Of a DNA stretch of 64,000 nucleotides, positions 9,217-61,275 are shown in pieces. Numbering within the stretch: position 1 is the stretch's first letter; every line of letters starts with the position of its first letter. The translations under genes and the position numbers were made by a program. Source of the DNA: Ilumatobacteraceae bacterium (lineage in GTDB: Bacteria > Actinomycetota > Acidimicrobiia > Acidimicrobiales > Ilumatobacteraceae); assembly GCA_051004915.1 (NCBI GenBank), contig JBPCJW010000142.1, forward strand, positions 915-64,914, given 5' to 3'. The notes under the pieces were generated by a model. The model saw nothing but the letters and a program-made list of their open reading frames with translations, was not told the origin of the DNA and ran no database searches.

Positions 9217-9302
9217 TGGCGGCTGCGCCGCCGTGTCTCCCTGGCGGTCGACCTGACTCCCACGCGCACTGCGGCACGAACGCTCGGGAACCCCACCGGC
9301 AA

Positions 9303-9416
9303 GGTTTCTGACGAAGCTGCGTGCTGGTTTTCCAGCACGATCGCGCCACAGAATCGCGGCGGCTGATTCCGTGGCGCGATTGGTGCGGGAATCCAGTTCG
9401 GAGTTTCGTCAGAACC
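9303..9416. repeat. MITE/REP-like palindromic element, family 2 (GGTTCTGACGAAG termini), copy 1
   Basis: The termini ggtttctgacgaag ... tttcgtcagaacc are inverted repeats. The internal arms ccagcacgatcgcgccac / gtggcgcgattggtgcgg are also inverted. It sits between the convergent GH2 and sdhB stops. Related copies lie at about 28843-28912 and 61296-61420. Confidence 0.85.
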
Positions 9417-9432
9417 GGGGGGGCGGCGGGGG

Positions 9433-10275: not shown

Positions 10276-10336
10276 GTCGGCACCTCTTCGCTCTCTCGCT
10301 CGGGCCCTCGCGCGGATCGTCTCGGGGAACGATCGC

Positions 10337-40302: not shown

Positions 40303-40310
40303 GGCTGCCC

Positions 40311-42338: not shown

Positions 42339-42417
42339 CGACCGGCCCGCTTCGGCCACCGAGCCACTGACTGACAACCTGACCGCTTCGGCCCCCAACC
42401 GCAGCGCGGAGGCATCA

Positions 42418-43449: not shown

Positions 43450-43481
43450 GGGATCACCCTGGCGACGATGCGCTCGCTCAT
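43446..43481 (-). CDS. micro-ORF 2 (11 codons, MSERIVARVIP), coding status unproven
   Basis: Its ATG overlaps the stop of micro-ORF 1 (ATGA), and its TGA overlaps the ATG of the ATP-grasp gene (ATGA). Confidence 0.15.
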   Translation of the reverse strand: MSERIVARVIP

Positions 43482-43591
43482 GTCAGCACCTCATCGTGGG
43501 CTGTAGCGCCGAGAAGGAGCGCACCAGGTACTCGGCCATGAGAGACAAGACCGTGCTGCTGATCCACTCGATCGAAGACTCCGTCGTTCAT
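43478..43591 (-). CDS. micro-ORF 1 (37 codons, MNDGVFDRVDQQHGLVSHGRVPGALLLGATAHDEVLT), coding status unproven
   Basis: Its ATG overlaps the aminotransferase stop (ATGA). By hand count, third-position G+C is about 20 of 37 codons, visibly lower than in neighbouring genes. Confidence 0.25.
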   Translation of the reverse strand: MNDGVFDRVDQQHGLVSHGRVPGALLLGATAHDEVLT

Positions 43592-44703: not shown

Positions 44704-44730
44704 TGGTGCTGGCCGACGGTGGTCGCCACG

Positions 44731-45909: not shown

Positions 45910-45970
45910 GGACCACCACCCTCAGGCCCCCGCCCCCGCCCATCCTGAGGCCCCGGCCGCCGCCCACCCG

Positions 45971-46077
45971 GCGCGATGAGGGATGAGTGGTCATACGACG
46001 CACATCGCTCATCGCTGGGCCGGGCTCCCGAGGGCGATGAGCGATGTGCGGCCAGACGGCACTCATCGCTCATCGCG
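45971..46077. repeat. structured palindromic repeat, family 1, copy 2
   Basis: Same architecture as 2231..2336. The outer arms are gcgcgatgagggatgagtgg and cactcatcgctcatcgcg. The inner perfect 10-bp stem, cgctcatcgc (46006-46015) with gcgatgagcg (46034-46043), again encloses an 18-nt loop, but the loop sequence differs. Confidence 0.9.
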
Positions 46078-46092
46078 TGGTGCGCTCACGGC

Positions 46093-47367
46093 TCATCGCG
46101 CTGGTTCGGTGGCGATCATCGTCGGGACCAGGACGGCGCGATCGCCGGCGACGTTGATCACCGACTCCGCCGACGCCCGGAACAGGCCGGGCCCGAAGGG
46201 CACCCCGTCGAAGCCGGGCAGCAGTCCGACGACATGCGCTGGCTGTTCGACCAGCTCGCCTGCATCCGTGAGCATCGGCATCGGCACGACGAGCTGTGGG
46301 ACGAACGCCTGCGCCGCCCGGTCGTCCGACTCGTGCTCGACGGCGTGGAGCCAGGTCGGCGGATCGCACGCCGCGCCGACCAGCAGGTCGATCCCCCGGC
46401 CCGAGCTGTTGCGCTTGAGCACCCAGTCAGCGGGCTCGGCGCGCAGCCGATCGGCGATCGAGGGGTCGCCGGCGTGGAACGTCGGGATGATGTGGTCCGA
46501 CAACACGTCGACCGAGGCGGGGTCGAGCAGGTCGGACATGATCGAGCGATCCCCCAGGACGGCGAGCATGCGCTTGTCGTGGCCGAGGATCAAGGTCCGC
46601 ACGTCGTTGAACGTGCGGTCGCAGGCCACAAGGGCCGCGAACAGATCGGGCGGCATCTCGAGCAGCTCGTCTCGCTCCAGCTCGAGGATGAACTGGGCGA
46701 CCGGCTCGCTCCCGTCGACGATCACGCCACGCTCGACGCGCAGCTGGTCCGGCCGGCGAGCTCGGGCGTCGATGCCGACACGGCGCAACTCGTCGACGAG
46801 GAGGAAGATCTCGTTGCCGCCCTCCCGGTCGAGGAGGACCACGAGCGGCCCCGGCTCGAAGCGCGACGCAAGGGCATCGATCGCCTGCCGCAGACCCACC
46901 ACGGCCCGCACCGCGGCACCGGTCAGGTAGCCAAGACCTTCGACCACTTCGTTGGTGTAGTAGCTGCACAGGAACCCGTTCGTGGGGAACCGGGCGTTGA
47001 CCTCGCAGACCTGGGCGACGCCGTCGACGTCGATCAGGAAGTCCGGGCGCAGCGCGCCGGTGCGATACGGGAGGCCATCGACTCGCTCGAGTAGCTCGAC
47101 GAGGGGGCCAGGCAGGGCCAGCACCCGGCGCAGCCGGCCGTCGGAGAGGTACCGCGCGATGACCCGCTCGATGCCGACGGCGATGGCGCGGTACAGACGG
47201 TCGAGGAGGGCGGCGTCGGGCGCGCCGAGGGTCAGCGGATACGGCGCGGTGCGATCGGCGTACCACCCCATCGACGGTGCGACCGAGCGCACCGCCTTGT
47301 CCAGCTCGGCCCGATCACGGCGGAAAGTGGCTGCGTCCGGCGGCCACACCGGCACCGTCGGGCGCAT
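46093..47367 (-). CDS. hypothetical ligase, possibly ATP-grasp / glutathionylspermidine-synthase-like
   Basis: ATG 47367 lies 7 nt after the upstream stop. RPDFLIDVDGVAQVCEVNARFPTNGF and WVLKRNSSGRGIDLLVG resemble nucleotide-binding strands of GspS-like or circularly permuted ATP-grasp enzymes. Coding confidence is high, function confidence low. Confidence 0.45.
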   Translation of the reverse strand: MRPTVPVWPPDAATFRRDRAELDKAVRSVAPSMGWYADRTAPYPLTLGAPDAALLDRLYRAIAVGIERVIARYLSDGRLRRVLALPGPLVELLERVDGLPYRTGALRPDFLIDVDGVAQVCEVNARFPTNGFLCSYYTNEVVEGLGYLTGAAVRAVVGLRQAIDALASRFEPGPLVVLLDREGGNEIFLLVDELRRVGIDARARRPDQLRVERGVIVDGSEPVAQFILELERDELLEMPPDLFAALVACDRTFNDVRTLILGHDKRMLAVLGDRSIMSDLLDPASVDVLSDHIIPTFHAGDPSIADRLRAEPADWVLKRNSSGRGIDLLVGAACDPPTWLHAVEHESDDRAAQAFVPQLVVPMPMLTDAGELVEQPAHVVGLLPGFDGVPFGPGLFRASAESVINVAGDRAVLVPTMIATEPAR

Positions 47368-47374
47368 CGGGGCG

Positions 47375-48226
47375 TTACACCATCTGGACGGCGCGGGCAC
47401 CGAGACCGGCGCGATCGAGCTGGTCGACGATCGACTGCATGGCGGCCGTCTTGTGCTCGAGGTAGGTCGCCACGGTGGAGCGCACGGCGCCGGCATCGAG
47501 TGTTCGGCCGGCACCGACGAGGTACGCCTCGATGGCGTCGACGGCATGACGGAAGTGATCCAGCTCGGTGCCGTCGCAGTGCACCTCGATCCACAGCAGT
47601 GCCCTGCGCCGATCGACATCGGACCAGCCACGCGCGATCAACCAGTCGTTGAACAGTGGCCGCAGCAGCTCGACCTCGGCGTGGGTGTAGATCTCGTGGA
47701 CGACCGTGGCCAGGATGCCGGTCAACAGGTCGTCCTCGACCAGGTTGCAACGGTCCTTCCACTGCTTGAACGCGGCCGCCTCCGGCGTGAGGTAGCGCTT
47801 CGATTGCCACTCGTCGCCGCCGCTCAGCGTGGTCGCCATCGCATAGAAGAGGTCGGCGTGCAGCAGGCCGTTGCCGACGCCGAGGTCCTCGTCGCAGATC
47901 CGGTGCAGGCTGACGAGCGAGCGGACCAGTGCGGCGGGGTCAGCCACTGCGCCGTCACGTAGCTGCAGAGTGATCCGGTTGCCGAGCCCGGACACGCACA
48001 TCGCGCTGTGGTTGGTCATGCTCCACGAACGGAAGTACCAGCGCAGGCCCTCGTCACCCGGCGACAGCTCGATGACCTGGCGGAACGCGTCCTCGATCGT
48101 CTCCAGCGAGTGGTGCGCCGACGGCGTCGAGATGGCGTCGGTCAGCGCGCGGCGCAAAACAGCGTCAACGACGTCATCCAGCTCGACGCTGATGAGCTGC
48201 TGCAACTGAGGTTCCACCGTCCGCAT
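47375..48226 (-). CDS. hypothetical protein, possibly a heme-oxygenase-like (TenA/PqqC/HDO fold) iron enzyme
   Basis: 283 aa and predicted all-helical by composition. Candidate metal ligand motifs are VVHEIYTHAEVE and EVHCDGTELDHFRH (H-x4-E-x2-H, close to the H-x3-D-x2-H of HDO/CADD-type proteins). Function is speculative. Confidence 0.4.
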   Translation of the reverse strand: MRTVEPQLQQLISVELDDVVDAVLRRALTDAISTPSAHHSLETIEDAFRQVIELSPGDEGLRWYFRSWSMTNHSAMCVSGLGNRITLQLRDGAVADPAALVRSLVSLHRICDEDLGVGNGLLHADLFYAMATTLSGGDEWQSKRYLTPEAAAFKQWKDRCNLVEDDLLTGILATVVHEIYTHAEVELLRPLFNDWLIARGWSDVDRRRALLWIEVHCDGTELDHFRHAVDAIEAYLVGAGRTLDAGAVRSTVATYLEHKTAAMQSIVDQLDRAGLGARAVQMV

Positions 48227-48441
48227 GCTGTCCTTTCGAGTTTTGGTCTGGCCGTTCGGAGCTCTTGGCGAGGTGCCGCCTCTCCGGCCGCGCTGGTCAG
48301 CTCGCTCGATCGATCGGGTTGTCTACCACAATCGAACGGCGAAACGGTGGAACCCCAGGTCAGCTTCGTCCCTCCCGTTGGAGCGCAGCCCGGCGGCGCC
48401 GGCGTGGCTGTCTCGGGGTCCGTCTCCGCGAGGATCGGGTC

Positions 48442-50286
48442 GTGATCTCGACCGGCGGCGGCGCACGCACGCTCTTCGGCGCCACCGCCGCGCTGCGCCA
48501 GCTGCTCGACCGTCGGACGCAGCGACGGCTGGTCCTGTGCGTCGTCGCATCGGTCGGGATCGCGCTCATCGAGATCGCCGGGCTGGTGGTCATCATCCCC
48601 CTTTTGACGATCCTCGCCGAGGGCAGCCTGCCCACACAGGGCGTGTCGGCCGAGATCGTCGGGTGGACGGGATCGAGCGACCCGGACACGGTCGTGCTGA
48701 TCCTCACGGCCGTCGCCTTCGGGTGCTTCGCGCTGCGTGCTGCGTCGACGCTCGTCGTGCGCTGGTGGATCTTCGGGCGGATCTTCGAAGACGAGGCGCG
48801 CACCTCGGCCCGGCTGCTGCGTCGTTTCCTGTCCGCGCCGTACGTCTTCCACCTGCGCACCAACTCGACCCAGCTCCTGCGCACGCTGACGTTGAGCGTC
48901 GACCAGACCTACAGCCGGGTGATCATCGGGCTGATCACGATCGCCGTCGAGCTGGTGGTCGCGGTGGGCACGGCGGTCGTGCTGGCGATCAGTGAACCGC
49001 TGGCGGCGCTCGCCCTGGTGGTGTACTTCGCGGTGGCGACCCTCGCCATCGCCCGCGCCGTGTCGGCCCGCAGCCGGCGCGTCGGGCTGCGCTTCCAGCA
49101 GCACAACGCCGAGGTGCTGAAGGAGGCGACCCAGGCCTTCGGAGCGTTCAAGCACATCCAGCTCGGCGGGCACGAGGACCACTTCGTGGCCCGCTTGGAG
49201 GAGGTCCGCCGGCAGTCGTCGGACACCAAGCGCAAGATCCAGTTTCTCGCCGAGGTGCCGAGGCAGTACTTCGAGCTGGCCTTCGTCGTCGGGATCGGCC
49301 TGATGATCATGATCGTCTCGGTGCTCCAGGGCTCGTCGTCGGTCGTCGCCGCCATCGGCTTGTTCGCCGTCGCCGGGTTCCGTCTGCTCCCCGGGCTGGT
49401 GCGCATCTCCAACAGCAACCAGAACATGCAGAGCGCGCTGCCGGCGCTGCAGCTCGTGCTCGATGCGTTGGCGCTGCCGGCGATGCCGGCCGACCCGGTG
49501 TCGATCGATCCGGCCGACGTGTTCACCGAGCAGTTGCGGGTGCACGATGTCTCGTTTCGCTACCCGGAGACCGAGGTCGACGCCCTGCGCGACATCGACC
49601 TGGAGGTCGCTCCCGGCGACTCCGTCGCGCTGGTCGGCCCGTCGGGCGCCGGGAAGAGCACGTTGATCGACGTGATCATCGGCCTCCACCCGCCGACCAG
49701 CGGTGAGGTGCTGATCGACGGCCGGCCGGCCGGCGACATCCGCACTGCGTGGCAGCGCGGCATCGGGTTGGTCCCGCAGGACATCTTCCTGCTCGACGCC
49801 ACGATCGCCGAGAACATCGCCTTCGGTGACCGCCTCGACGAGATCGACAAGGCGCAGTTGGACGAGACCGTCGCCATGGCCCAGCTCGACGACCTGGTCG
49901 CCGAGCTGCCGGCGGGACTGCAAACGATCGTCGGCGAACGGGGCGTGCGGCTGTCCGGCGGCCAACGCCAACGGCTCGGCATCGCCAGGGCGCTGTACGG
50001 CCGGCCCCGCCTGCTGGTGCTGGACGAGGCGACCTCGGCGCTCGACTCGGTGACCGAGGCGCGGATCACCGGGACGCTGCGTGGGCTGCGCGGCCGCCTG
50101 ACGATGATCACGATCGCCCATCGCCTGTCAACGGTGCGCGCCGCCGACCGGCTGGTGCTGATGGACGAGGGGCGGATCATCGACACAGGTCCGTTCGAGC
50201 AGCTGCGCGACCGCAACACGTCGTTCCGCCACCTCGTCGAGGTCGCCGAGATGACCTCGTCCCTCCGAACCGACACCAACGGCTGA
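48442..50286 (+). CDS. ABC exporter, fused permease-ATPase (MsbA/type IV half-transporter)
   Basis: GTG 48442. Six-TM N-terminal domain, Walker A GPSGAGKST, signature LSGGQRQR, Walker B LLVLDEATSALD. Confidence 0.9.
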   Translation: MISTGGGARTLFGATAALRQLLDRRTQRRLVLCVVASVGIALIEIAGLVVIIPLLTILAEGSLPTQGVSAEIVGWTGSSDPDTVVLILTAVAFGCFALRAASTLVVRWWIFGRIFEDEARTSARLLRRFLSAPYVFHLRTNSTQLLRTLTLSVDQTYSRVIIGLITIAVELVVAVGTAVVLAISEPLAALALVVYFAVATLAIARAVSARSRRVGLRFQQHNAEVLKEATQAFGAFKHIQLGGHEDHFVARLEEVRRQSSDTKRKIQFLAEVPRQYFELAFVVGIGLMIMIVSVLQGSSSVVAAIGLFAVAGFRLLPGLVRISNSNQNMQSALPALQLVLDALALPAMPADPVSIDPADVFTEQLRVHDVSFRYPETEVDALRDIDLEVAPGDSVALVGPSGAGKSTLIDVIIGLHPPTSGEVLIDGRPAGDIRTAWQRGIGLVPQDIFLLDATIAENIAFGDRLDEIDKAQLDETVAMAQLDDLVAELPAGLQTIVGERGVRLSGGQRQRLGIARALYGRPRLLVLDEATSALDSVTEARITGTLRGLRGRLTMITIAHRLSTVRAADRLVLMDEGRIIDTGPFEQLRDRNTSFRHLVEVAEMTSSLRTDTNG

Positions 50287-50341: not shown

Positions 50342-52495
50342 GTGAGCCACCGGTACCTGTGGACGCCACTTGCGCTCGGCCCGGTGATGACGCGCAACCG
50401 GATCGTGTTCTCGGCGCACCTCACGAACTACGCCCGAGACGGCCTCCCGACCGAGCAGCACGCCGCCTACTACGAGGCGCGGGCGGCGGGCGGGACGGGC
50501 TTGATCGTGACCGAGGAGCACTCGACGCACCCCACCGACTGGCCCTACGAGAAGCTGATCCACGGGTTCCACCGCGACGTCATCCCCGGCTATCGGCGGA
50601 TCACGGAGGCCGTGCACCGCCACGGCGTCCCGATCTTCGCCCAGATCAACCACAACGGTGGGCAGGCGTCGTCGATGTACACCCGCCTGCCGGTCTGGGC
50701 GCCTTCGGCCGTCGCCGACCCGTTGTTCCGGGAGGTCCCGAAGGCGGTCACGCAGGCCGAGATCGACGAGATCGTCGCCGGCTACGCGCTCGTCGCCGAG
50801 CACTGCGCCGAAGGCGGCTTCGACGGCATCGAGCTGCAGTGCAGCCACTCGTCCATCGTGCGTGGCTTCCTGTCGCTGTCGACCAACCGCCGCACCGACG
50901 GGTACGGCGGCAGCCTCGAGCACCGAGTTCGGCTGCTGCACGAGATCGTCGCCGCCGTGCGCCGCGTGATCGGCCATCGCCTGGCCCTCGGCGTTCGGCT
51001 GTGCGGGGACGAGCTGATCGACGGCGGGACGACGATCGGCGAGGCCGTCGAGGTCGCCCGGATGATCGAGGCGAAGGGTCAGGTGGACTACATCAACACG
51101 TCGATCGGTGTGGCCACCGCCACGCTGTACATGATCGAGGCGTCGATGCACGTGCCTCCCGGGTACGCGCTGTTCATCCCCTCTGCGATCCGGGAAGCCG
51201 TCGACCTGCCGGTGGTCGGCGTCGGCCGTTTCAAGGACCCGCTGCAGGCCGAGCGGGCGCTGGCGGAGGGCCATTGCGACCTCGTCGGCGTCGTCCGCGG
51301 CCAGATCGCCGACGCCGACTTCGCGGCCAAAGCGAGGGCCGGGGCGACCGAGGAGATCCGCCTCTGCCTGTCCTGCAACCAAGAGTGCGTCGGCCGGATG
51401 GGGCTCAACCGCTGGCTCGGCTGCATCGAGAACCCGACCACCGGCAAGGAATCCCGGTCTGTCCGCAGCCCCATGGGGGCTGCGGACCCAGGGGGCCCCA
51501 TCCCCGTGCGGCTCGCTGGCGCTGGCGCGCCCGGGCGTCCGCTTCGCGTCCGCAGCAACCAACTCACAACGGCAGGATCGTCCGGACAGAACGATGTGCT
51601 GGTCGTCGGGGCGGGCCCGGGGGGTTTGCAGGCGGCGATCAGCGCGGCGCGCCACGGTCACCGGGTGACGGTGTGGGAGCGCAACGCGCAACCCGGGGGG
51701 CAGGTGCGCCTGGCGGCGCTGGTCCCCAACCGCGCCGAGCTCGGCGACATGATCCGCAACCAGGTCAGCGAGTGTCGGCGGTTGGGCGTGCGCATCGAGT
51801 GCGGCGTCAAGGCGACGGTGGAGCGGATCCGAGGTCACGCCCCGAGCCACGTGATCGTCGCCACCGGGGCGATCCCCGCTCGCCCGTGGTGGATCGGTGG
51901 TGAGGTGACCAACGCCTGCGACGTGTGCGACGTGCTGGCCGGTACGGCCACGCCGACGGGACGCGTCGCGGTGATCGACGAGCTCGGCTTCCACCAGGCC
52001 ACGTCGGTCGCGGAGCTGCTGGCCGATCGTGGCTGTTCGGTCGAGATCATCACGCCGGGGATGGTCGTCGGCCAAGACCTCGGCATCACCCTCGACCTCG
52101 AGCAGTGGTGGATGCGAGCGATGGCCAAGGGCATCGTGCAGTCGACCGATCTCGTGCCGATGGGATTCGACGGCATCACCCTGACGCTGCTCCACCACCC
52201 GACCGGCGAGAACGAGGAGCGCACACCCGACTGGGTCGTCTTGGCTGTGCCAGCGATCCCCGCCGACGACCTGTACCACGAGCTGCGGGCGGCGGGGATC
52301 TCCGTCGACCGGGTCGGCGACTGCGTCGCGCCTCGCCGCGCCCACGCCGCGGTCGTCGAGGGCGAGCGAGCCGGCACCGATGTGCCATCGCGCCCGGCTC
52401 CGCCCGACGCCGCGCCCGTGCAGACGTCTGCCACCAGAACCCGCTTGGCGTTCCGGCGCCGCCGACCATCGCCGGACGCCGAACTCGTCGGATGA
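50342..52495 (+). CDS. NADPH-dependent 2,4-dienoyl-CoA reductase-like flavoprotein (OYE domain + 4Fe-4S + FAD/NAD domain)
   Basis: LTNYARDGL...AYYEARAAGGTGLIVTE, INHNGGQ, GFDGIELQCSHSSIV, CLSCNQEC (Fe-S), VLVVGAGPGGLQAA, and a second Rossmann fold. Confidence 0.88.
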   Translation: MSHRYLWTPLALGPVMTRNRIVFSAHLTNYARDGLPTEQHAAYYEARAAGGTGLIVTEEHSTHPTDWPYEKLIHGFHRDVIPGYRRITEAVHRHGVPIFAQINHNGGQASSMYTRLPVWAPSAVADPLFREVPKAVTQAEIDEIVAGYALVAEHCAEGGFDGIELQCSHSSIVRGFLSLSTNRRTDGYGGSLEHRVRLLHEIVAAVRRVIGHRLALGVRLCGDELIDGGTTIGEAVEVARMIEAKGQVDYINTSIGVATATLYMIEASMHVPPGYALFIPSAIREAVDLPVVGVGRFKDPLQAERALAEGHCDLVGVVRGQIADADFAAKARAGATEEIRLCLSCNQECVGRMGLNRWLGCIENPTTGKESRSVRSPMGAADPGGPIPVRLAGAGAPGRPLRVRSNQLTTAGSSGQNDVLVVGAGPGGLQAAISAARHGHRVTVWERNAQPGGQVRLAALVPNRAELGDMIRNQVSECRRLGVRIECGVKATVERIRGHAPSHVIVATGAIPARPWWIGGEVTNACDVCDVLAGTATPTGRVAVIDELGFHQATSVAELLADRGCSVEIITPGMVVGQDLGITLDLEQWWMRAMAKGIVQSTDLVPMGFDGITLTLLHHPTGENEERTPDWVVLAVPAIPADDLYHELRAAGISVDRVGDCVAPRRAHAAVVEGERAGTDVPSRPAPPDAAPVQTSATRTRLAFRRRRPSPDAELVG
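51461..51556 (+). other. 87-bp in-frame insertion bounded by 9-bp direct repeats GTCCGCAGC within the reductase gene
   Basis: gtccgcagc occurs at 51461-51469 and 51548-51556, exactly 87 nt apart. The insertion opens with the hairpin gtccgcagcccc-at-gggggctgcggac (12-bp stem). Confidence 0.7.
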
Positions 52496-53121
52496 GCTGG
52501 CTGTCCGCGCTGACGGATTGGCTGGAGGACGTCGCCAGCCAATGGTGGTTCCTGATCGTGATCTTCGGCATCGCCCTGCTCGACTCCGTCATCCCGCTCG
52601 TGCCGAGCGAGACGACGGTCATCATCGGCGGCGTGGCGGCCGGCTCTGGCGACCAGAACCTGGCGCTCGTGATCCTGGCCGGAGCGCTCGGCGCGCTGTG
52701 CGGCGACAACGTGGCGTATGCCGTTGGCCGCAGCTTGGCGCCATGGTTCTACCGGCGGGCGGAGCAGCGGGACAAGACCAGGCGCCGGCTCGACTGGGCG
52801 CGCACCCAGATCCGAGCGCGCGGAGGCCTGCTGTTGATCACTGCCCGGTTCGTCCCGGGCGGCCGCACGGCGCTGACGCTCACCTCCGGCGTCACCCACC
52901 AGCCGTGGGGGTGGTTTGCCGGATGGATCGCCATCGCCGCCGTGATCTGGGCGACGTACGCAGCCGTCCTCGGGGCGATCTTCGGCAGCACGTTCCAGGA
53001 CAACCACACGCTGGCGTTCCTGCTCGCGTTCGCCGCCGCGCTCGGCATCACCGTCGTCATCGAGATCGTCCGTCACGTCCGCAGCCGACCGGCAGAGCAC
53101 GGCCCACCACCGCTGCCGTGA
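52492..53121 (+). CDS. DedA family membrane protein
   Basis: ATG 52492 overlaps the reductase stop (ATGA). LLDSVIPLVPSETTVIIGG and ARFVPGGRTALTLTSG are DedA/SNARE-associated motifs. Confidence 0.85.
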   Translation: MSWLSALTDWLEDVASQWWFLIVIFGIALLDSVIPLVPSETTVIIGGVAAGSGDQNLALVILAGALGALCGDNVAYAVGRSLAPWFYRRAEQRDKTRRRLDWARTQIRARGGLLLITARFVPGGRTALTLTSGVTHQPWGWFAGWIAIAAVIWATYAAVLGAIFGSTFQDNHTLAFLLAFAAALGITVVIEIVRHVRSRPAEHGPPPLP

Positions 53122-53159: not shown

Positions 53160-53715
53160 TCAGTCCTCGACCGGAGCGGTCAGCGCCTTCCAGAACGCGA
53201 TCTTGTCATCGCCCGGGCCGTAGAACTCGCGGATGTGCGCTTCCTCGTCGTAGCCAAGCTGTCGATAGAACGACCTCGCTCGCTCGTAGCCGTCGAGGCT
53301 CGACGTTTCGACGATCAGCACGCGAGCGACGGCGGCCCCCCGGCTGCGCAGCGCATCCTCGACCTGCGCGACCAGCGTGCTGCCCAGGCCGGCTCGATGC
53401 TGCCCGGGCCTGACAGCCAGGAGTAGAGGTTCCACATCCGATGGGCGAACGGCTCGGGCGCGTAGTACGCAGCACCCGCAACGTGCCCGTGCGCATCGTC
53501 GACCACCACCCACGCGTGTCCTCGAGACTGCCGTCGAGATGGCCGCCGAGCATTTCGTCGAAGCCGCCCATGTCCTCGCGCTCGAACATGCCGTTGTCGA
53601 GCGCGAGGCCCCTGATCGCACCGGCATCGGCGGCGCTGGCGGCACGAACGGTGGACGCCACGACATCGGTTCGGATGAACGGTGATTCCACGTCGGCAGT
53701 CTCGCCGCACCGCAC
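53160..53715 (-). pseudogene. GNAT N-acetyltransferase disrupted by two frameshifts
   Basis: The GNAT-like sequence is split over three reading frames. Frame A: ...VRAASAADAGAIRGLALDNGMFEREDMGGFDEMLGGHLDGSLED. Frame B: GHAWVVVDDAHGHVAGAAYYAPEPFAHRMWNLY. Frame C: LLLAVRPGQHRAGLGSTLVAQVEDALRSRGAAVARVLIVETSSLDGYERARSFYRQLGYDEEAHIREFYGPGDDKIAFWKAL. The switch points are near 53525 and 53420. Confidence 0.7.
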
Positions 53716-53756
53716 GGCTGAGCAGTCGTTGTTTTGGGTGACCGAGCTCTCGATCC

Positions 53757-54755
53757 ATGGCGAGATCCGTGACCCCGATCCAGAACTCCACGCGGCCGCC
53801 TACCCTGGCCGACGTGTTGGCGGTCGTTCCGGTGCGCGACGGGGTGGTGCCCGCCGGCGGTGCGGAGACCGTCGCCGAGTGCGGCGGCCGGACCCTGCTC
53901 GTCGGGTCGTCGCCCGACGACGACGCCCTCGCCGGGGTCGGCCGTGACGTCCAAGTGCTCGAGCTCGGTGCGTTCGCGGCGGGCCGGTGGTCCGACGCGC
54001 TGGCGCCGCTCCTGGCTGACGAACACCTCGTCGTGCTGCCCGGATCACCGGACGGTCGCGACCTCGCGCCGCGGCTGGCCCACGCCCTCGACCGTCCGCT
54101 GCTGGCTGGCGCGATCCGCGTGTCGGCGATCGCGGCGCAGCTGGCCAGGGGGACGCACCTGCACGACTTCACCATCTCGGGTCCGGTGGTCGTCACGCTG
54201 CAGCCGGGAGTGCGCGGCATCGTCGTCGACCCTGCATCCGAGTGCCTGGTGAGGGGGCTCCCCGCACCGGACACTCGGTCGGCCCGAAACGCTCGGATCT
54301 CTTCCGCTCGGGACGCGACGGTGGTCGAGGTGTTGCCGCCCGATGTGGCGACGATGGACCTGATCGAGGCGGACCGGATCTTCGGCGGCGGCGCCGGCCT
54401 CGAGGACGAAGAGCGCTTCGTGCAACTGACGGCAGTCGCCAGCGCGCTCGGCGCGTCGATGGGTGCCACACGCGTCATCACCGACCGCGGCTGGGTCGCC
54501 CACCAGCGCCAGATCGGCACGACGGGCGTGGTCGTCGACCCGACGCTGTACGTCGCGCTCGGCGTCAGCGGCGCCGTCCAACACACCGCGGGGCTGGGCA
54601 CGCCCGACCACATCGTCAGCGTCAACACCGATGCCCACTGCCCGATGATGCAGCTTGCGGACCTGGCCGTCGTCGCCGATGCCAACGCTGTCCTGGACGA
54701 GCTCGTCCGCTTGCTGACACCCTCGCCGCAGCCGATCGGCGTCGCTGCTGACTGA
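53757..54755 (+). CDS. etfA: electron transfer flavoprotein alpha subunit (FixB/EtfA)
   Basis: C-terminal FAD-binding motif GASMGATRVITDRGWVAHQRQIGTTGVVVDPTLYVALGVSGAVQHTAGL. An alternative start is GTG 53814. Confidence 0.88.
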   Translation: MARSVTPIQNSTRPPTLADVLAVVPVRDGVVPAGGAETVAECGGRTLLVGSSPDDDALAGVGRDVQVLELGAFAAGRWSDALAPLLADEHLVVLPGSPDGRDLAPRLAHALDRPLLAGAIRVSAIAAQLARGTHLHDFTISGPVVVTLQPGVRGIVVDPASECLVRGLPAPDTRSARNARISSARDATVVEVLPPDVATMDLIEADRIFGGGAGLEDEERFVQLTAVASALGASMGATRVITDRGWVAHQRQIGTTGVVVDPTLYVALGVSGAVQHTAGLGTPDHIVSVNTDAHCPMMQLADLAVVADANAVLDELVRLLTPSPQPIGVAAD

Positions 54756-54771
54756 GCGCGACTACGACGTC

Positions 54772-56055
54772 GTGGTGGTCGGCGCCGGGCCGGCCGGCTC
54801 GTGCGCCGCCACGGTGCTGGCCAGGGCCGGCCGACGCGTGCTGCTGTTGGAGCGGGGGCCCTTCGCCGGGAGCAAGAACATGTACGGCGGGGTCGTCTAC
54901 CCCCGCGTGCTCGACGGGCTGCACCCCGGATGGTGGGAATCGGCGCCCGTCCAGCGTTGGGTCACCCGCCGCTCGACCATGCTGCTCACGGCGGACCAGG
55001 CCGTCACCGTCGACTTCCGTTGCGCCAGCTGGGGTCGCCCGCCGTACAACGGCGCCACTGCGCTGCGTCCGGACTTCGACCACTGGCTGGCCGGTCTGGC
55101 CGAGGCCGACGGCGCCGAGCTCGTCTGCTCGACCACCGCGACCGGCTTGTTGCGCAACCCGGACGGCACGGTCGTCGGCGTGCGCACCGACCGGCCGGAC
55201 GGCGACGTGCGGGCCGGCGTGGTCATCGCCTGCGACGGCGTGAACAGCTTCCTGGCCAAGGAGGCCGGGCTGTTCGAGCACGACGACGCCGACCACTACA
55301 CGCTCGGTGTCAAGGAGACGCTCGGCCTGCCGAAGGACGTCATCGACGAGCGGTTCAACGTGCGCGACCGGGCCGGCGTGGACATCGAGATCGTCGGCGG
55401 CACCGGCGCCGTGAACGGCGGGGCGTTCGTGTACACCAACCTCGACACCGTCGCCGTCGGCGTCGTCCTGAAGCTGCCGGCGCTCGCCGCCCAGCAGCGC
55501 CGCCCGGAGGACATCATCGCCACGCTCAAGAGCCATCCGGCGATCGCGCCGCTCGTCGAGGGAGGCGAGGTGAAGGAGTACTCGGCGCACCTGATCCCGG
55601 AGGCGGGCCTGGCGATGATGCCGCAGCTAGCCGGCGACGGGCTGCTGGTCGCCGGTGATGCGGCGGCGATGTGCCTGGCGGCCGGCATCTGGCTGGAGGG
55701 CGTCAACTTCGCCATGGCCAGCGGGATGGCCGCCGGCGAGGCGGCCGACGCTGCATTGTCCATCGGGGACACGTCGAAGGCTGGCCTGGCCGGGTACGTG
55801 CGGCGGCTGTCCGACAACTTCGTGCTGCGCGACCATCGCAAGCTGCGCCGCGCTCCCGAGCTGGTGCTGTCGGACCGCGTTCAGCACGTCTACCCGCAGC
55901 TCGTCGCCAACACGGTCGAGGCAATGTTCCGCGTCGACAACCCGCACCCCAAGCCGGGATTGCGGCACATCCTCACCGCCCAGCGCAAGCGCCTCGGGAT
56001 CCGACGCCGCGACCTCCTCCGCGACGCGATCACCGGCTGGAGGACGTTCGGATGA
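54772..56055 (+). CDS. fixC: FAD-dependent oxidoreductase FixC (ETF-quinone oxidoreductase-like)
   Basis: VVGAGPAGSCAATVLARAGRRVLLLERG. The homologous DYDVVVVG dinucleotide-fold start extends upstream of the first GTG (in-frame codons ERDYDV at 54754-54771), so the true start may be a non-canonical codon (CTG 54745 or 54748). Confidence 0.88.
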   Translation: MVVGAGPAGSCAATVLARAGRRVLLLERGPFAGSKNMYGGVVYPRVLDGLHPGWWESAPVQRWVTRRSTMLLTADQAVTVDFRCASWGRPPYNGATALRPDFDHWLAGLAEADGAELVCSTTATGLLRNPDGTVVGVRTDRPDGDVRAGVVIACDGVNSFLAKEAGLFEHDDADHYTLGVKETLGLPKDVIDERFNVRDRAGVDIEIVGGTGAVNGGAFVYTNLDTVAVGVVLKLPALAAQQRRPEDIIATLKSHPAIAPLVEGGEVKEYSAHLIPEAGLAMMPQLAGDGLLVAGDAAAMCLAAGIWLEGVNFAMASGMAAGEAADAALSIGDTSKAGLAGYVRRLSDNFVLRDHRKLRRAPELVLSDRVQHVYPQLVANTVEAMFRVDNPHPKPGLRHILTAQRKRLGIRRRDLLRDAITGWRTFG

Positions 56056-56348
56056 GCGATCGCGACTGGCTCGTGTCGTTCGACGACGTCATCGCTACGA
56101 CGCGCTTCGACGTGGCTGAGCGTGCCCACATCGTCGTCGACGGCGACGTCTGTCGGGATTGCAGCACGCGCGACTGCGTCGTCGCCTGCCCGGCGAAGCT
56201 CTTCGTGCCGACTGCCGACGGCGGGATCCTCTTCAACTACGAGCAGTGCTTCGAGTGTGGCACCTGCTACCTCGTGTGCAACGAGGAGGGCGCCATCTCG
56301 TGGTCGTACCCGGAGGGTGGTCACGGCGTGGTGTTCCGCCGGTCGTGA
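56052..56348 (+). CDS. fixX: ferredoxin-like protein FixX
   Basis: ATG overlaps the fixC stop (ATGA). CRDCSTRDCVVACPAKLF...CFECGTCYLVCNEEGAISWSYPEGGHGVVFR is the FixX signature. Confidence 0.9.
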   Translation: MSDRDWLVSFDDVIATTRFDVAERAHIVVDGDVCRDCSTRDCVVACPAKLFVPTADGGILFNYEQCFECGTCYLVCNEEGAISWSYPEGGHGVVFRRS

Positions 56349-57139
56349 TCGTCGTCGCCCGCAAGTGGCCGACCGGTGACGTCGGCGACGAGCGGTGGTC
56401 CGCCGTGTCGGAATCCGACCGCGCCGCGCTGGAGGTCGGGCTGCGCCTGGCCGAGGCGAGCGGCGACTCGGTCACCGTCGTCACGGTCGGCGGGTCGGGA
56501 GCCGATCCGTCGCTGCGCGAGGCGTTGGCCGTCGGTGCGGTGCGTGCCGTACGCATCGACTCGTCGGCCGATCTGCGCAGTGATGCCGTCGCGTGGGCCA
56601 TCGCCGAGGTGGCACGCGACGCGCGATGGGTCGTCTGTGGCGATGCCTCGTCGGACCGTGGATCGGGGGCGGTCCCGGCGTTCCTTGCCGCCGAGCTCGG
56701 CGCAGCCCAGGCGCTCGGACTCGTGACCGTCGAGGCGGATCGCGGAGACGGCGGAGATGGAGAGACGGTGCGAGCGGTGCGCCGCCTCGACGGCGGGCGG
56801 CGCGAGGTGCTCAGCGTGGCGGCGCCCGCGGTGCTGTCGGTCGAAGGGTCGGTCGCCCGGCTGCGCCGCGCCGCCCTGACGGCGAAGGTGGGCACCCGCA
56901 CGATGCCGATCGAGGTGCTGGCGGGTCCGTCCGGGCCGCTCGACGAGCCGGCCGCCGTCGTGGCCTACCGGCCTCGGCCACGAGCCATGCCCGTGCCCGC
57001 CGGGGATGCACTGGCCCGCGTGCGCACACTGACCGACCTCGCCGGCGGTCCGGTGGGACACGGTGAGGTCGTCACGCTCGACCCACCGGCCGCGGCGGCC
57101 AAGATCCTCGCCACCCTCACCACCTGGGGCTACCGATAG
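56345..57139 (+). CDS. etfB: electron transfer flavoprotein beta subunit (FixA/EtfB)
   Basis: GTG overlaps the fixX stop (GTGA). VIVVARKWP..., VVCGDASSDRGSGAVPAFLAAELG and LSVEGSVARLRRAAL are typical EtfB motifs. Confidence 0.85.
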   Translation: MIVVARKWPTGDVGDERWSAVSESDRAALEVGLRLAEASGDSVTVVTVGGSGADPSLREALAVGAVRAVRIDSSADLRSDAVAWAIAEVARDARWVVCGDASSDRGSGAVPAFLAAELGAAQALGLVTVEADRGDGGDGETVRAVRRLDGGRREVLSVAAPAVLSVEGSVARLRRAALTAKVGTRTMPIEVLAGPSGPLDEPAAVVAYRPRPRAMPVPAGDALARVRTLTDLAGGPVGHGEVVTLDPPAAAAKILATLTTWGYR

Positions 57140-57205: not shown

Positions 57206-57880
57206 GTGCGCCTGACGGACCAGACGTGGCCGGACACCGCGGCTGCGTGCCCGGTCGTGGGCGTGCCGGTCGGATCCTGCGAGCAGCACGGCCCACACCT
57301 GCCGCTCGGCACGGACACCGTCATCGCCGAGGCACTCGTCGGGCGCCTGGCGGCCCTGCGCCCCTCGATCGTCATCGGCCCGACCTTGACGGTGACGGCC
57401 AGTGGCGAGCACGCCGGCTTCGCCGGCACGTTGTCCATCGGGAGCGACGTGCTGTCCTCGATGATCGTCGAGCTCGTCCGCTCGGCCGACTGGTCCGGCG
57501 GCGTCGTCCTCGTCAACGGGCACGGCGGGAACCGTGAGGCGGTCGATCGGGCCGTCGCCGTGCTGCGCTCGGAACGCCGGCCCGTGCTGGCGTGGTGGCC
57601 GTCGCTGGCCGGCGGCGATGCCCATGCCGGCCGCACCGAGACGTCGATCATGCTGACCCTGCGACCGGACCTCGTGCGCCAGGACCGCGCCGTCGTCGGC
57701 GAGACCGCTCCGCTCCCCCAGTTGATGGGCCGGCTGCGCGCCGGCGGCGTGGCCGTGGTCGAACGGTCCGGCGTGCTCGGCGACCCCACTGGCGCCACTC
57801 GAGCAGAGGGCGAGACCATCCTGCGCCGACTGACCGACGACCTCGTCGCCGCGTTCGACCGCTGGAACGCCGGCCGGTGA
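57206..57880 (+). CDS. creatininase-family amidohydrolase (mycofactocin peptidase MftE-like)
   Basis: VVGVPVGSCEQHGPHLPLGTD, SGEHAGFAGTLS, VLVNGHGGN and DAHAGRTETS are the creatinine amidohydrolase metal-ligand pattern. It is directly coupled (GTGA) to an MftF-like GT2. Confidence 0.75.
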   Translation: MRLTDQTWPDTAAACPVVGVPVGSCEQHGPHLPLGTDTVIAEALVGRLAALRPSIVIGPTLTVTASGEHAGFAGTLSIGSDVLSSMIVELVRSADWSGGVVLVNGHGGNREAVDRAVAVLRSERRPVLAWWPSLAGGDAHAGRTETSIMLTLRPDLVRQDRAVVGETAPLPQLMGRLRAGGVAVVERSGVLGDPTGATRAEGETILRRLTDDLVAAFDRWNAGR

Positions 57881-59208
57881 CGTCGTACTCGCTCGATCGT
57901 TCGACCCGCCGACCGTCGGGCAGTGATGTCGTCGTCGGCGGATCGCCGCTGCGGCTGTTCCGGCTGACACCAGCCGGTGCCGAGGTGTTCGACCGGATCA
58001 GCGCCGGTGAGCAGATCGCCCCGTCACCCGCCGTCGACGGCTTGATCGACCGGCTGCTCGACGCCGGTGCGATCCATCCCCATCCGCGATCATCGCCGTA
58101 CACGTCGGCCGACGTCGCGGTCGTCGTCCCCGCCCATGTGCTCGGCGACACGGCGCTGACGGAGATCGTGCGGTGCTGCCCAGGCGTGGCCGCCGTGATC
58201 GCCGTCGACGACGCCTCCGACCCGCCGATCGCCTCGGTCGACGGCGCTCGTGTGCTGCGACTGCGCACGAACGCCGGGCCGGCTGTCGCCCGCAACGCCG
58301 GTCTGGGGGCGGTGACCACACCCCTCGTCGCTTTCGTCGACACCGACGTGCGCCTGCAGCCCGGCTGGCTCGACCCGCTCGTCGCCCACTTCGCCGACGA
58401 ACGCGTGGGGCTCGTCGCCCCCCGTGTCGCCAGCGCCGCCGGCGCCGGCTCGGTCGCGCAGTACGAGCAGGGTCACTCCCCACTTGATCTCGGACCGGAA
58501 CCGGGGCGCATCGGCCCCGGGACACGCCTCAGCTACGTGCCTGCCGCGGCGATCGTCGTGCGCACCGAAGCGCTGCGCGCAATCGGTGGGTTCGACCGCA
58601 CGTTGCGCTTCGGCGAGGACGTCGACGCGGTGTGGCGGTTGGTCGCAGCCGGATGGCGGTGCCGGTACGAACCGGCGGTGTGCATCGAGCACCGACCGCG
58701 TGGCACCTGGCGCGGGCTCGTCACCCAGCGCATCGGCTACGGGTCGGCCGCCGCGCCGTTGGCGCGCCGTCACCCCGGCGCGCTGGCGCCGGTGCGGATC
58801 AGCGGCTGGAGCGGCGGCGTCTGGTGGTTGGTCGCGTCGGGGCATCCGGTCGTCGCCGCGGCGGTGGCGGCGGGAACGGCGGGCGCGCTGGTGCGCAAGT
58901 TGCCTGGGCTTCCGGCGCGAGAGTCAATGCGGCTGACCCTCGTCGGTCATCTCGGCGCCGGCCGGCTGCTCGCCGATGCGGCCCGTCGGGCCTGGTGGCC
59001 GGTGATCCTTGCCGGTGCGGTGGTGTCGAGACAGGCGCGACGCATCGCCGTGCTCGCCGCGCTGCCGGCACTGTCGAACGGCGGCGTCCCACGGCTCCTC
59101 GACGACGTCACCTACGGGCTCGGGGTCTGGAAGGGCGTGCTCGCCGAGCGTCAGCTCGGGCCGCTGCTGCCGGCGTTCCCCCGCTGGCCGGGACGCGCCT
59201 CCGACTGA
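57877..59208 (+). CDS. family 2 glycosyltransferase (mycofactocin-system MftF-like)
   Basis: The N-terminal VVVGGSPLRLFRLTPAGAEVFDRI segment is as I recall it from MftF-type proteins. GT2 core: VAVVVPA...VDDASD...NAGPAVARNAG...FVDTDV...FGEDVDAVWRL. C-terminal TM helices are present. Confidence 0.7.
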   Translation: MTSYSLDRSTRRPSGSDVVVGGSPLRLFRLTPAGAEVFDRISAGEQIAPSPAVDGLIDRLLDAGAIHPHPRSSPYTSADVAVVVPAHVLGDTALTEIVRCCPGVAAVIAVDDASDPPIASVDGARVLRLRTNAGPAVARNAGLGAVTTPLVAFVDTDVRLQPGWLDPLVAHFADERVGLVAPRVASAAGAGSVAQYEQGHSPLDLGPEPGRIGPGTRLSYVPAAAIVVRTEALRAIGGFDRTLRFGEDVDAVWRLVAAGWRCRYEPAVCIEHRPRGTWRGLVTQRIGYGSAAAPLARRHPGALAPVRISGWSGGVWWLVASGHPVVAAAVAAGTAGALVRKLPGLPARESMRLTLVGHLGAGRLLADAARRAWWPVILAGAVVSRQARRIAVLAALPALSNGGVPRLLDDVTYGLGVWKGVLAERQLGPLLPAFPRWPGRASD

Positions 59209-59234: not shown

Positions 59235-60179
59235 GTGACGTTGCGGCTCACCGTCGAACGCGACCCGTGGTGGAGGCACGCCGAACGGGTGGCCCGCGAC
59301 GCACCAGGCCTCGTCCCGGTCGTCAAGGGCAAGGGGTACGGGTTCGGTCGGGCGCGGCTCGCCGAACTGGCCGGCAAGCTCGCCGACACCATCGCCGTCG
59401 GGACGGTCCACGAGCTCGCCGGCCTCCCGGCTGGCCTGACGCCCGTCGTGTTGACACCGAGCCTGCGACCGCCCGTCGACCCGGCGCCGATCCTCACTGT
59501 CGGCTCGCTGCGCCACATCGCCGCGCTGGACGGTTGGCGGGGACGAGTGCTGGTCAAGCTGGCGTCGTCGATGCGGCGCTACGGCACCAGCCGCGACGAG
59601 CTCGGCGCCATGGTCTCGACCGCCCAGCGGTCGGGTCTCGAAGTCGTCGGGTTCAGCGTGCACCCGCCCGTCGCGGGCAGCGACGACGAGCACCTGGACG
59701 ACATCGCCGCATGGATGAACGTGCTCGACCCGACCGACGAGGTGTGGGTCAGCCACCTCTCGCTCGATGGCTACGCCGCACTCCGTGACGCGTGGCCCGA
59801 CCACAGGTTCCGCATCCGCTTGGGAACGGCGCTGTGGCACGGAGACAAGCGGTACCTGCAGTTGGGAGCCGATGTGCTGGACGTGCGGCCGACTCGGGTC
59901 GACGACCGAGTCGGCTACCGGCAGCTGCCCGTCCCCTGCGACGGGCACCTCGTGATGGTCGGCGCCGGGACGGCCCACGGCGTGCAGGCTCGGCCCGACG
60001 GCCTGAGCCCGTTGCACTTCGGTCGGCGGCGACTGGCGTTGCTCGAGCCGCCGCACATGCACACCTCGATGGTCGTCGTCCCGAGCGGCGAGCCGATGCC
60101 TGCCGTCGGTCAGTGGATCGACGTCCAGTGCCCTCTGATCACCGCCTACCCAGACGAATGGGTGTGGACCGATGGCTGA
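59235..60179 (+). CDS. alanine racemase-family PLP enzyme (short, 314 aa)
   Basis: GTG 59235. PVVKGKGYGFG matches the Alr PLP-lysine motif (VVKAnAYGHG). The C-terminal beta-domain has GYRQLP...VGAGTAHG. It is shorter than the canonical Alr. Confidence 0.65.
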   Translation: MTLRLTVERDPWWRHAERVARDAPGLVPVVKGKGYGFGRARLAELAGKLADTIAVGTVHELAGLPAGLTPVVLTPSLRPPVDPAPILTVGSLRHIAALDGWRGRVLVKLASSMRRYGTSRDELGAMVSTAQRSGLEVVGFSVHPPVAGSDDEHLDDIAAWMNVLDPTDEVWVSHLSLDGYAALRDAWPDHRFRIRLGTALWHGDKRYLQLGADVLDVRPTRVDDRVGYRQLPVPCDGHLVMVGAGTAHGVQARPDGLSPLHFGRRRLALLEPPHMHTSMVVVPSGEPMPAVGQWIDVQCPLITAYPDEWVWTDG

Positions 60180-61275
60180 GCCGGTGCGGACGGCGGTGGC
60201 GCCGAACGTGGGGCCGGGCGCCGGGCGTCTGCCCGGCCCGGACGTGGTGCGTGCTGTCGCCCTGATCGGCGTGGTCGTGATCAACTTCCACGGCTACTTG
60301 ATCCTGCGCGGCTCACCGCGAGGCGACAGCGCCCTCGATGACCTCTTCGACCCGTGGACCGGGCCGCTGTCGACACGCTTTGCGGCGACGTTCGTGCTCG
60401 TCGCCGGCGTCGGCGTCACGCTGCTCACCCGGCGGTCGATCGGCAACCGGGCAGCCGTGCTGGCGAAGCGGCTGACACTCGTCCGCCGTGGCCTCGTGTT
60501 GTACGTCGGCGGCCTGTGGCTCGACACGATCTGGGCGGGGACCATCCTGCCGTTCTACGGGGCCATGTTCATCGTCGGCGCCGGGCTCTTCACGTTGCGC
60601 TCGCGCTGGGTCCTGACGGTGGGGGCCGGAGCGGCGGTGGCTGCGGCGGCGCTGCGCTGGCGGGCCACGCAGTCGCGACTCGACGGGAACAGCGTCGACT
60701 GGTTCTTCGCTCCAGGCGGGCTGCTGCAGTGGTTGGCCGACGTCTTCGTCAACGGAACCCATCCGCTGCTGCCGTGGCTGGCGTTCTTCTGCACGGGCAT
60801 CGTGCTCGGGCGGCTGCTCACCACCGCAGCATGGCGGCCGATCGTCATCAGCGCAGGAGCTGTGCTCGTCGGCCTTGCGACGCTGGTCTCGGCGATGGTG
60901 CCGGCTGGACCGCTGGCGTCGATCCTCTCGAGCACCGACCCCTTCGACCGCGGCCTGCTGTACACGGCCAGCGCGCTCGGCACCGCGCTGATCGCCTTCG
61001 GAGTGCTGACGTGGCTCGCCGACCGCTTCACGGCCAGCGCGCCGATCGACCTACTGCGCGATGCCGGCGCGATGACGCTGACGCTGTACGTCGGCCACGC
61101 GCTCGTGTTCAACCTCGTCGTCGACTGGCTCGGGTGGATCCGCCCGACCGGGCTGGACACGGCGCTGGCGTTCGCCGCCGGCTTCTGGCTCGTCGCCATC
61201 ACCCTGGCTGCCTGGTACCACCGCCGCTTCGGCATCGGCCCGGTCGAGCGCGCCTACCGCCTCATCGGCGGCTGA
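60172..61275 (+). CDS. DUF418/DUF1624-type (YeiB-like) polytopic membrane protein
   Basis: ATG overlaps the upstream stop by 8 nt. RAVALIGVVVINFHGYL, multiple TM helices, and C-terminal GPVERAYRLIGG, typical of the YeiB/heparan-glucosaminide-acetyltransferase-like family. Confidence 0.7.
   Translation: MAEPVRTAVAPNVGPGAGRLPGPDVVRAVALIGVVVINFHGYLILRGSPRGDSALDDLFDPWTGPLSTRFAATFVLVAGVGVTLLTRRSIGNRAAVLAKRLTLVRRGLVLYVGGLWLDTIWAGTILPFYGAMFIVGAGLFTLRSRWVLTVGAGAAVAAAALRWRATQSRLDGNSVDWFFAPGGLLQWLADVFVNGTHPLLPWLAFFCTGIVLGRLLTTAAWRPIVISAGAVLVGLATLVSAMVPAGPLASILSSTDPFDRGLLYTASALGTALIAFGVLTWLADRFTASAPIDLLRDAGAMTLTLYVGHALVFNLVVDWLGWIRPTGLDTALAFAAGFWLVAITLAAWYHRRFGIGPVERAYRLIGG

Follow-up and report, generated by a model that had tools for sequence, protein, structure and literature searches.

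A mycofactocin mftE-mftF pair beside old yellow enzyme and electron transfer flavoprotein genes: the probable late half of a split locus in an Ilumatobacteraceae bacterium

The DNA analyzed here, a 64-kb stretch from an Ilumatobacteraceae bacterium (hereafter the window, meaning the whole stretch; G+C content, 70%), carries two adjoining genes, mftE and mftF, of the pathway for the cofactor mycofactocin, in an array with genes for an old yellow enzyme (OYE), an electron transfer flavoprotein (ETF), and FixC- and FixX-type proteins. We read the window as one half of a split mycofactocin locus of an OYE/ETF type, namely the half with the late-acting and redox-coupling genes, the early genes being located outside the window, and assign this reading a probability of about 0.75. 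A split locus is favored because the same gene module adjoins mftABC or mftD in sister Acidimicrobiia, because stand-alone mftA-mftC/mftD and mftD-only loci exist, and because complete Acidimicrobiia genomes are recorded as MftC-positive in published tables. A first-pass annotation of the same DNA, made from the letters alone, had described the pair as an orphan embedded behind an ETF/Fix operon, and had proposed either a split mft locus or recruitment of the pair to a different substrate.

Identity of the pair and its setting in relatives

Both members of the pair scored above the equivalog cut-offs of the NCBIfam mycofactocin models. MftE reached 281 bits against TIGR03964 (cut-off, 172), compared with 92 bits against the sister creatininase family TIGR04448 (cut-off, 235) and 44 bits against IolN (cut-off, 245); Pfam assigned it a Creatininase domain, and it aligns to creatinine amidohydrolase structures. 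The metal and catalytic motifs (E-x-H...D, GEH, NGHGGN, and HxGxxETS) are all found in MftE and are identical in at least 95% of 40 orthologues. MftF reached 357.1 bits against TIGR03965 (cut-off, 280), with model positions 3-465 of 467 covered, and contains GT2 domains according to Pfam. Its closest database proteins are 55-78% identical, the named ones being MftF, and one of them is encoded in an Ilumatobacteraceae metagenome-assembled genome (MAG). The mftF start codon is a GTG at 57877 that overlaps the mftE TGA, and a longer open frame begins at 57592. Conserved motifs are kept in at least 95% of the MftE (n = 40) and MftF (n = 48) sequences, as well as in those of AlrL, the product of the gene after mftF (n = 37), in sets that included members of contiguous mft clusters. 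Judged by sequence, the two genes are true mycofactocin maturation genes, mftE and mftF, with predicted activities. The first-pass annotation described the pair itself accurately: the coordinates of the creatininase-family gene and the GT2 gene, their coupling by GTGA, the EQHG, GEHAG, NGHGGN, and HAGRTE motifs, and the GT2 N-terminal GGSPLRLFRLTPAGAEVF are all present as it gave them, and the proposed MftF identity was borne out by TIGR03965. The outcome that it had named as a refutation, scores under the family cut-offs for both proteins, did not arise. It also placed the pair correctly behind fixB-fixC-fixX-fixA, after a 66-bp gap.

The genes upstream of the pair do not, however, form an unrelated operon. 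OYE2 scored 944.7 bits against TIGR03997 (cut-off, 793), compared with 369 bits against the OYE1 model (cut-off, 628), and fitted this model better than BaiCD and other FadH-like models; EtfA scored 359.6 bits against NF038209 (cut-off, 240), and EtfB scored 213.3 bits against TIGR04503 (cut-off, 200). On these scores, OYE2, EtfA, and EtfB are members of mycofactocin-specific subfamilies, and the label "orphan" is not tenable for a pair that passes its own equivalog models beside neighbors that pass mycofactocin-associated ones. FixC scored 307 bits against NF007542 (cut-off, 610) and 337.6 bits against NF007450, also under its cut-off, and FixX scored 55 bits against NF011993 (cut-off, 166); these two are therefore given only generic FAD-oxidoreductase and 4Fe-4S ferredoxin-like names. 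The Pfam domain ETF-QO_FixC_C was seen in the FixC of relatives, and Fer4_9 in FixX on an identical short contig. The link to the ETF genes that the first-pass annotation suspected is thus real by the curated models, but it is not new, since Streptomyces plasmids carry ETF genes between mftC and mftF.

A scan of 185,579 species genomes (one per species) with the window MftF yielded 56 loci, mostly from Acidimicrobiia/Ilumatobacteraceae MAGs, together with the isolate Desertimonas flava. These loci were mapped by tblastn and by a regular expression for the MftA C terminus, with early genes looked for within 10 kb. The layout of the window recurs in about 20 soil MAGs, whose MftF is 53-77% identical to that of the window, as OYE2-DedA-etfA-fixC-fixX-etfB-mftE-mftF-AlrL-membrane protein-Zn peptidase-ROK, with no early genes. 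Five loci, including that of D. flava, have the module without ETF genes (DedA-mftE-mftF-AlrL-membrane protein, with DedA undetected in three of the five) and likewise no early genes. In four soil Ilumatobacteraceae the order is mftD-DedA-mftE-mftF-AlrL-membrane protein, so that in soil members of this family mftD and OYE2 take the same position, directly upstream of DedA. In 11 aquatic Ilumatobacteraceae or "Acidimicrobium sp." loci, mftA-mftB-mftC, with an MftA that ends in IDGMCGVY, is followed after about 600 bp by DedA-mftE-mftF-AlrL-membrane protein, and mftD is absent. Three Acidimicrobiales loci have etfA-fixC-fixX-etfB-mftF-AlrL, with neither mftE nor early genes. Since the DedA-mftE-mftF-AlrL-membrane protein module adjoins mftABC or mftD in sister lineages, the module is tied to the mft genes. 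The mft genes of Acidimicrobiia are habitually scattered, and split mft loci are common in the class.

Loci of the complementary kind were also found. A soil contig (L068; 72.6% G+C) carries mftA and mftC divergent from mftD at 8619-11173, without mftE or mftF; its MftC (601 bits, TIGR03962) and MftD (631 bits, TIGR03966) both exceed their cut-offs. About 35 N-terminal residues of this MftC are like the start of MftB, and a separate mftB was not found at this locus; the protein may be a fused or truncated MftB-MftC. The context of five MftD matches further revealed mftD alone on four more contigs. Nothing ties this contig, or any of the four mftD-only loci, to the clade of the window. In published data, MftC, MftB, and MftF always co-occurred across 1450 genomes (Haft 2011, PMC3023750), and MftC is present, with MftG absent, in Ilumatobacter coccineus, Iamia sp., and two Aquihabitans strains (PMC11778925 supplement).

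The early genes were sought in the window itself. None of its six frames holds an open reading frame (ORF) ending in GVY or CGVY, matches to CxxxCxxC occur only in Arg-rich off-frame ORFs, Pfam scans of the other window ORFs (1-50 kb) returned no Radical_SAM, PqqD, FMN_dh, or GMC domain, and tblastn with verified MftA, MftB, MftC, MftD, and MftG seeds gave no match in the 64 kb. The first-pass statement that the window has no radical-SAM enzyme, no PqqD-like MftB, and no ORF ending in CGVY therefore holds by six-frame, Pfam, and tblastn searches. Two ORFs of about 380-390 aa at 43.6-45.9 kb were considered as mftC and mftD and rejected, one being a DegT aminotransferase and the other having no family match.

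Several results weigh against the reading of the window as half of a split locus. No mftA, mftB, mftC, or mftD was found in the window or within 10 kb of mftF in about 35 window-type and related soil loci. The sister-lineage module favors the split that the first-pass annotation offered as one of its alternatives, but no mftABC(D) set could be demonstrated at another place in this genome. A search for MftC or MftD on the same 0.1- to 1.8-Mb contigs as the mftEF genes of the window group found none among the best 120 matches per seed (a Streptomyces MftC and an MftD from a soil mftD-type locus), although the mftD-type control loci did match; its sensitivity is low, since with proteins this conserved the best 120 matches reach down only to about 79% and 70% identity, respectively. 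mftE is missing from six loci (L017, L031, L032, L033, L034, and L037: two window-type, one mftD-type, and three from Acidimicrobiales MAGs) in which mftF and AlrL remain, with mftF directly following etfB in four of the six; MftE therefore appears to be dispensable or relocated in several lineages. Finally, a literature search found no experiment or paper linking ETF/FixCX to mycofactocin, and nothing relevant on mycofactocin with old yellow enzyme or Acidimicrobiia.

Gene array of the window

The array runs OYE2-DedA-etfA-fixC-fixX-etfB-mftE-mftF-AlrL-membrane protein, co-directional and tightly packed, with a GNAT pseudogene on the opposite strand after DedA (Table 1). The first-pass annotation had recognized the pair and the fix genes, but missed that OYE2, DedA, AlrL, and the DUF418/HGSNAT protein are part of the same array. 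No terminator-like site was found from etfA to AlrL. The sole break in the array is the 635 bp from DedA to etfA, which contains the GNAT sequence. The N-terminal, middle, and C-terminal segments of GNAT lie in three different frames, and because two frameshifts are needed to join them, this appears to be either a pseudogene or an assembly error. GNAT is missing at that position in some relatives (e.g., L013, in which the DedA-etfA gap is 120 bp), and it is a variable insertion outside the conserved array.

Table 1. Genes of the mycofactocin-associated array, with junctions to the next gene of the array (negative values, overlap)
Feature	Coordinates	Strand	Family evidence	Junction with next gene
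OYE2, mycofactocin system FadH/OYE family oxidoreductase 2 (FMN/FAD/Fe-S flavoenzyme, 717 aa)	50342..52495	+	TIGR03997	-4 bp, ATGA stop/start overlap
DedA/VTT-family membrane protein	52492..53121	+	Weak DedA/UptA NCBIfam matches; Pfam VTT_dom in relatives	
GNAT acetyltransferase, apparent pseudogene in three frames	53160..53720	-	Pfam Acetyltransf_7/1 on C-terminal piece only	
EtfA/FixB, mycofactocin-associated electron transfer flavoprotein alpha subunit	53757..54755	+	NF038209	16 bp
FixC-type FAD-dependent ETF:quinone oxidoreductase	54772..56055	+	Generic name only; NF007450/NF007542 below cut-off	-4 bp, fixC stop overlaps fixX start
FixX-type 4Fe-4S ferredoxin-like protein	56052..56348	+	NF011993 below cut-off	-4 bp, stop/start codons overlap
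EtfB/FixA, mycofactocin-associated electron transfer flavoprotein beta subunit	56345..57139	+	TIGR04503	66 bp
MftE, predicted mycofactocin peptidyl-dipeptidase (creatininase fold, 224 aa)	57206..57880	+	TIGR03964	-4 bp, GTGA
MftF, predicted mycofactocin glycosyltransferase (GT2 and C-terminal membrane region, 443 aa)	57877..59208	+	TIGR03965	26 bp
AlrL, alanine-racemase-N-like putative pyridoxal phosphate protein	59235..60179	+	Pfam Ala_racemase_N	-8 bp
DUF418/HGSNAT-like membrane (acyltransferase-like) protein	60172..61275	+	Pfam DUF418, HGSNAT_cat, weak Acyl_transf_3	

Three genes of the array are a feature of Acidimicrobiia. We compared 63 mftF loci (the window and L008-L078), in each of which 10-14 kb around mftF was covered. 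DedA lies beside mftE-mftF in 35 of the 63, and AlrL comes after mftF in 39, both counts including loci with contiguous mftABC; the DUF418/HGSNAT protein follows AlrL in most Acidimicrobiia loci. AlrL scored 55.7 bits against Pfam Ala_racemase_N and aligns to Mycobacterium tuberculosis Alr across the VVKxxxYGxG lysine motif, while no NCBIfam model matched it. All three genes are absent from the Streptomyces, Jiangella, and mycobacterial mft clusters. They may be accessory genes of the mycofactocin system that are specific to this class and have gone unrecognized, with roles such as modifying or handling the glycan; their presence may mean that the glycan of the cofactor is treated differently in Acidimicrobiia.

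In some relatives, the array is interrupted by a zinc-dependent alcohol dehydrogenase gene on the opposite strand, either between etfB and mftE or after OYE2 (L007:8243-9226 and L006:4119-5033). These were considered as mycofactocin-dependent dehydrogenases and rejected, being PIG3-type, quinone oxidoreductase-like proteins with no match to TIGR03989.

Elsewhere in the window, Pfam identified sdhAB, mdh, purH, metF, sucCD, pcrA, two two-component systems, and a P450, as well as the methyltransferase and GT2 ORF, ATP-grasp enzyme, DegT protein, and ABC exporter of a biosynthetic-looking cluster at 39765-50286. This cluster, which consists of that methyltransferase and GT2 ORF, a PylC-like ATP-grasp protein, a DegT/DnrJ aminotransferase, three proteins without a family match, and the exporter, is syntenic with a relative (L004), where its counterpart directly abuts DedA-mftE-mftF without intervening OYE2 or ETF genes. 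At 41139-41219, a perfect tandem repeat of 24 bp (3.4 copies, 100% identity) encodes GGSAAMSV units; in the long ORF at 39765-42338, these stand between the methyltransferase part and the GT2 part.

Cofactor chemistry and alternative readings

In characterized members of these families, MftC with MftB decarboxylates and cross-links the C-terminal Val-Tyr of MftA, MftE releases the product AHDP, AHDP is converted to premycofactocin by oxidative deamination through an oxidase, and MftF adds beta-1,4-glucose units. In mycobacteria, MftG re-oxidizes the reduced cofactor and thereby feeds the respiratory chain. If the same biochemistry applies here, MftA, MftB, and MftC would be encoded elsewhere in the genome and would make the decarboxylated, cross-linked Val-Tyr tail, MftE would cut the modified C-terminal Val-Tyr-derived core off as AHDP, and MftF would add the beta-1,4-glucose chain after oxidative deamination to premycofactocin. 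Client dehydrogenases would then reduce the cofactor, and its re-oxidation would be needed. OYE2, EtfAB, and FixCX, encoded by translationally coupled genes that end 66 bp before mftE, may link mycofactocin(ol) to the quinone pool by electron transfer; they emerge as the candidate carriers because MftG is absent from the window and from every Acidimicrobiia locus examined, and on their gene context we regard this assignment as tentative, with odds somewhat short of even.

The relation of the ETF genes to mftD and mftG was examined across the 63 mftF loci. ETF genes without mftD occur in 29 and mftD without ETF genes in 14, while 20 have neither and none has both; OYE2 is present in 22 of the 29 ETF-bearing loci. 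The ETF-bearing loci represent only about three to four independent lineages, and given this and the 10-14 kb view, the mutual exclusion of ETF and mftD is a lead rather than a result. Searches by tblastn with a TIGR03970-verified seed gave no mftG match, either for the window or for any of the Acidimicrobiia loci examined. Given the separation of ETF from mftD in these loci and the lack of an mftG match in Acidimicrobiia, the ETF/FixCX module may replace MftG. MftG passes mycofactocin electrons to respiration, about 25% of genomes with MftC lack it, and its substitute in these genomes is an open question (PMC11778925). OYE2-EtfAB-FixCX is a concrete candidate for an MftG-independent route, and possibly for an oxygen-independent MftD substitute.

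A stronger version of this idea holds that the replacement is complete, with the FadH/OYE protein replacing MftD as an oxygen-independent premycofactocin synthase, EtfAB/FixCX replacing MftG, and mftD not being needed at all. It overlaps with the split-locus reading and differs from it only on MftD. The counts above are consistent with it, as are the placement of OYE2 directly upstream of DedA, where mftD stands in the mftD-type soil loci, and the known clusters on plasmids, among which four Streptomyces clusters of the ETF type have neither mftD nor mftG, and two canonical clusters have mftD and mftG but are free of ETF and OYE genes. However, those counts come from few lineages and from 10-14 kb around mftF, and stand-alone mftD genes, which are frequent in assemblies of this kind, could supply MftD to these genomes. 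We therefore consider complete replacement possible but rather doubtful.

We also considered whether the pair might be a true orphan. Under this explanation, the soil clade would have lost mftA, mftB, and mftC (and mftD) genome-wide, and MftE, MftF, and OYE2/EtfAB/FixCX would have been selected to act on a substrate other than MftA, such as a small aromatic amide that is cleaved, glycosylated at the membrane, and redox-cycled. The missing early genes near mftF and on the larger contigs would fit, as would the dispensability of MftE in some members that keep MftF-AlrL, and Herbiconiux sp. L3-i23 is a documented case of an incomplete mft set. Nevertheless, the searches behind those absences are of low sensitivity, and both proteins are well above their equivalog cut-offs with every family-conserved motif retained. 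Moreover, sister lineages have an identical DedA-mftE-mftF-AlrL-membrane protein module joined to mftABC or mftD, MftF and MftC always appeared together across 1450 genomes (PMC3023750), and cultured Acidimicrobiia have MftC. Recruitment to a different substrate, the other alternative of the first-pass annotation, found no positive support, and we judge it unlikely. If true, it would imply a glycosylated redox carrier similar to mycofactocin whose synthesis requires neither a ribosomal precursor nor a radical SAM enzyme. That mftE-mftF is a non-functional, decaying leftover of a lost mycofactocin cluster is highly improbable: early genes are locally absent, a GNAT pseudogene lies inside the array, and MftE was lost in a few relatives, but intact ORFs with translational coupling remain, at least 95% of orthologues retain the catalytic residues, and gene order is conserved across MAGs with MftF 53-77% identical to that of the window, a divergence far too old for neutral survival.

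Comparison with known systems

The system in the window is a known cofactor system, probably in a split, lineage-typical arrangement. Standard annotation would name MftE, MftF, the mycofactocin-associated EtfA and EtfB, and FadH/OYE oxidoreductase 2; what stays of interest is the ETF/MftG question and the Acidimicrobiia accessory genes, rather than the mftE-mftF pair.

With the FixABCX/EtfAB systems and ETF:quinone oxidoreductase, the window shares the four-gene set etfA(fixB)-fixC-fixX-etfB(fixA), encoding flavoprotein, FAD-oxidoreductase, and ferredoxin-like components. It differs in that EtfA and EtfB fall in mycofactocin-associated subfamilies, not in those of nitrogen fixation or carnitine metabolism, and in that FixC and FixX fall short of the curated FixC/FixX cut-offs. 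Herbiconiux sp. L3-i23 (PMC11778925) offers a precedent for a region that keeps some mft genes without others; mftD, mftF, mftG, and possibly an mftA survive there, mftB, mftC, and mftE having been lost, but it is a single strain, whereas the layout of the window is clade-wide.

The canonical cluster of Mycobacterium (Rv0691c-Rv0697) has mftE directly before and overlapping mftF, as in the window, with both proteins in the same equivalog families. That cluster, mftR/mftA-B-C-D-E-F-G, is contiguous and includes MftD and MftG without OYE or ETF genes, whereas the window is without mftR, mftA, mftB, mftC, mftD, and mftG. The aquatic loci (L036, L040-L045, L048, L050, and L059) have the same DedA-mftE-mftF-AlrL-membrane protein module as the window, with MftF 40-47% identical, and differ in having mftA-B-C immediately upstream of DedA, in being without OYE2 and ETF genes, and in having no mftD within 10 kb.

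A search of plasmid proteins found MftF on 11 records. The canonical clusters among them (Tsukamurella and Streptomyces sp. NBC_00080) run mftR/G-A-B-C-D-E-F(-G), without OYE or ETF genes. Four Streptomyces plasmids (NZ_CP107797, NZ_CP108009, NZ_CP102515, and NZ_CP016083) instead carry one block, mftA-B-C-OYE1-OYE2-etfA-fixC-fixX-etfB-(mycofactocin-coupled short-chain dehydrogenase/reductase)-mftF-mftE, with no mftD or mftG in the block. As in the window, OYE2-etfA-fixC-fixX-etfB stands beside mftF and mftE, and identities to the proteins of the window are 64% for OYE2, 64% for FixC, 74% for FixX, 48% for EtfA, 51% for EtfB, 50% for MftE, and 46% for MftF. The plasmids alone have mftA-B-C and OYE1 directly upstream, usually the dehydrogenase/reductase gene, and the order mftF-mftE, while the window has the order mftE-mftF and adds DedA, AlrL, and the DUF418/HGSNAT membrane protein. 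Because its order fits the Streptomyces block minus mftABC and OYE1, the window would correspond to the distal two-thirds of a mycofactocin locus of the OYE/ETF type.

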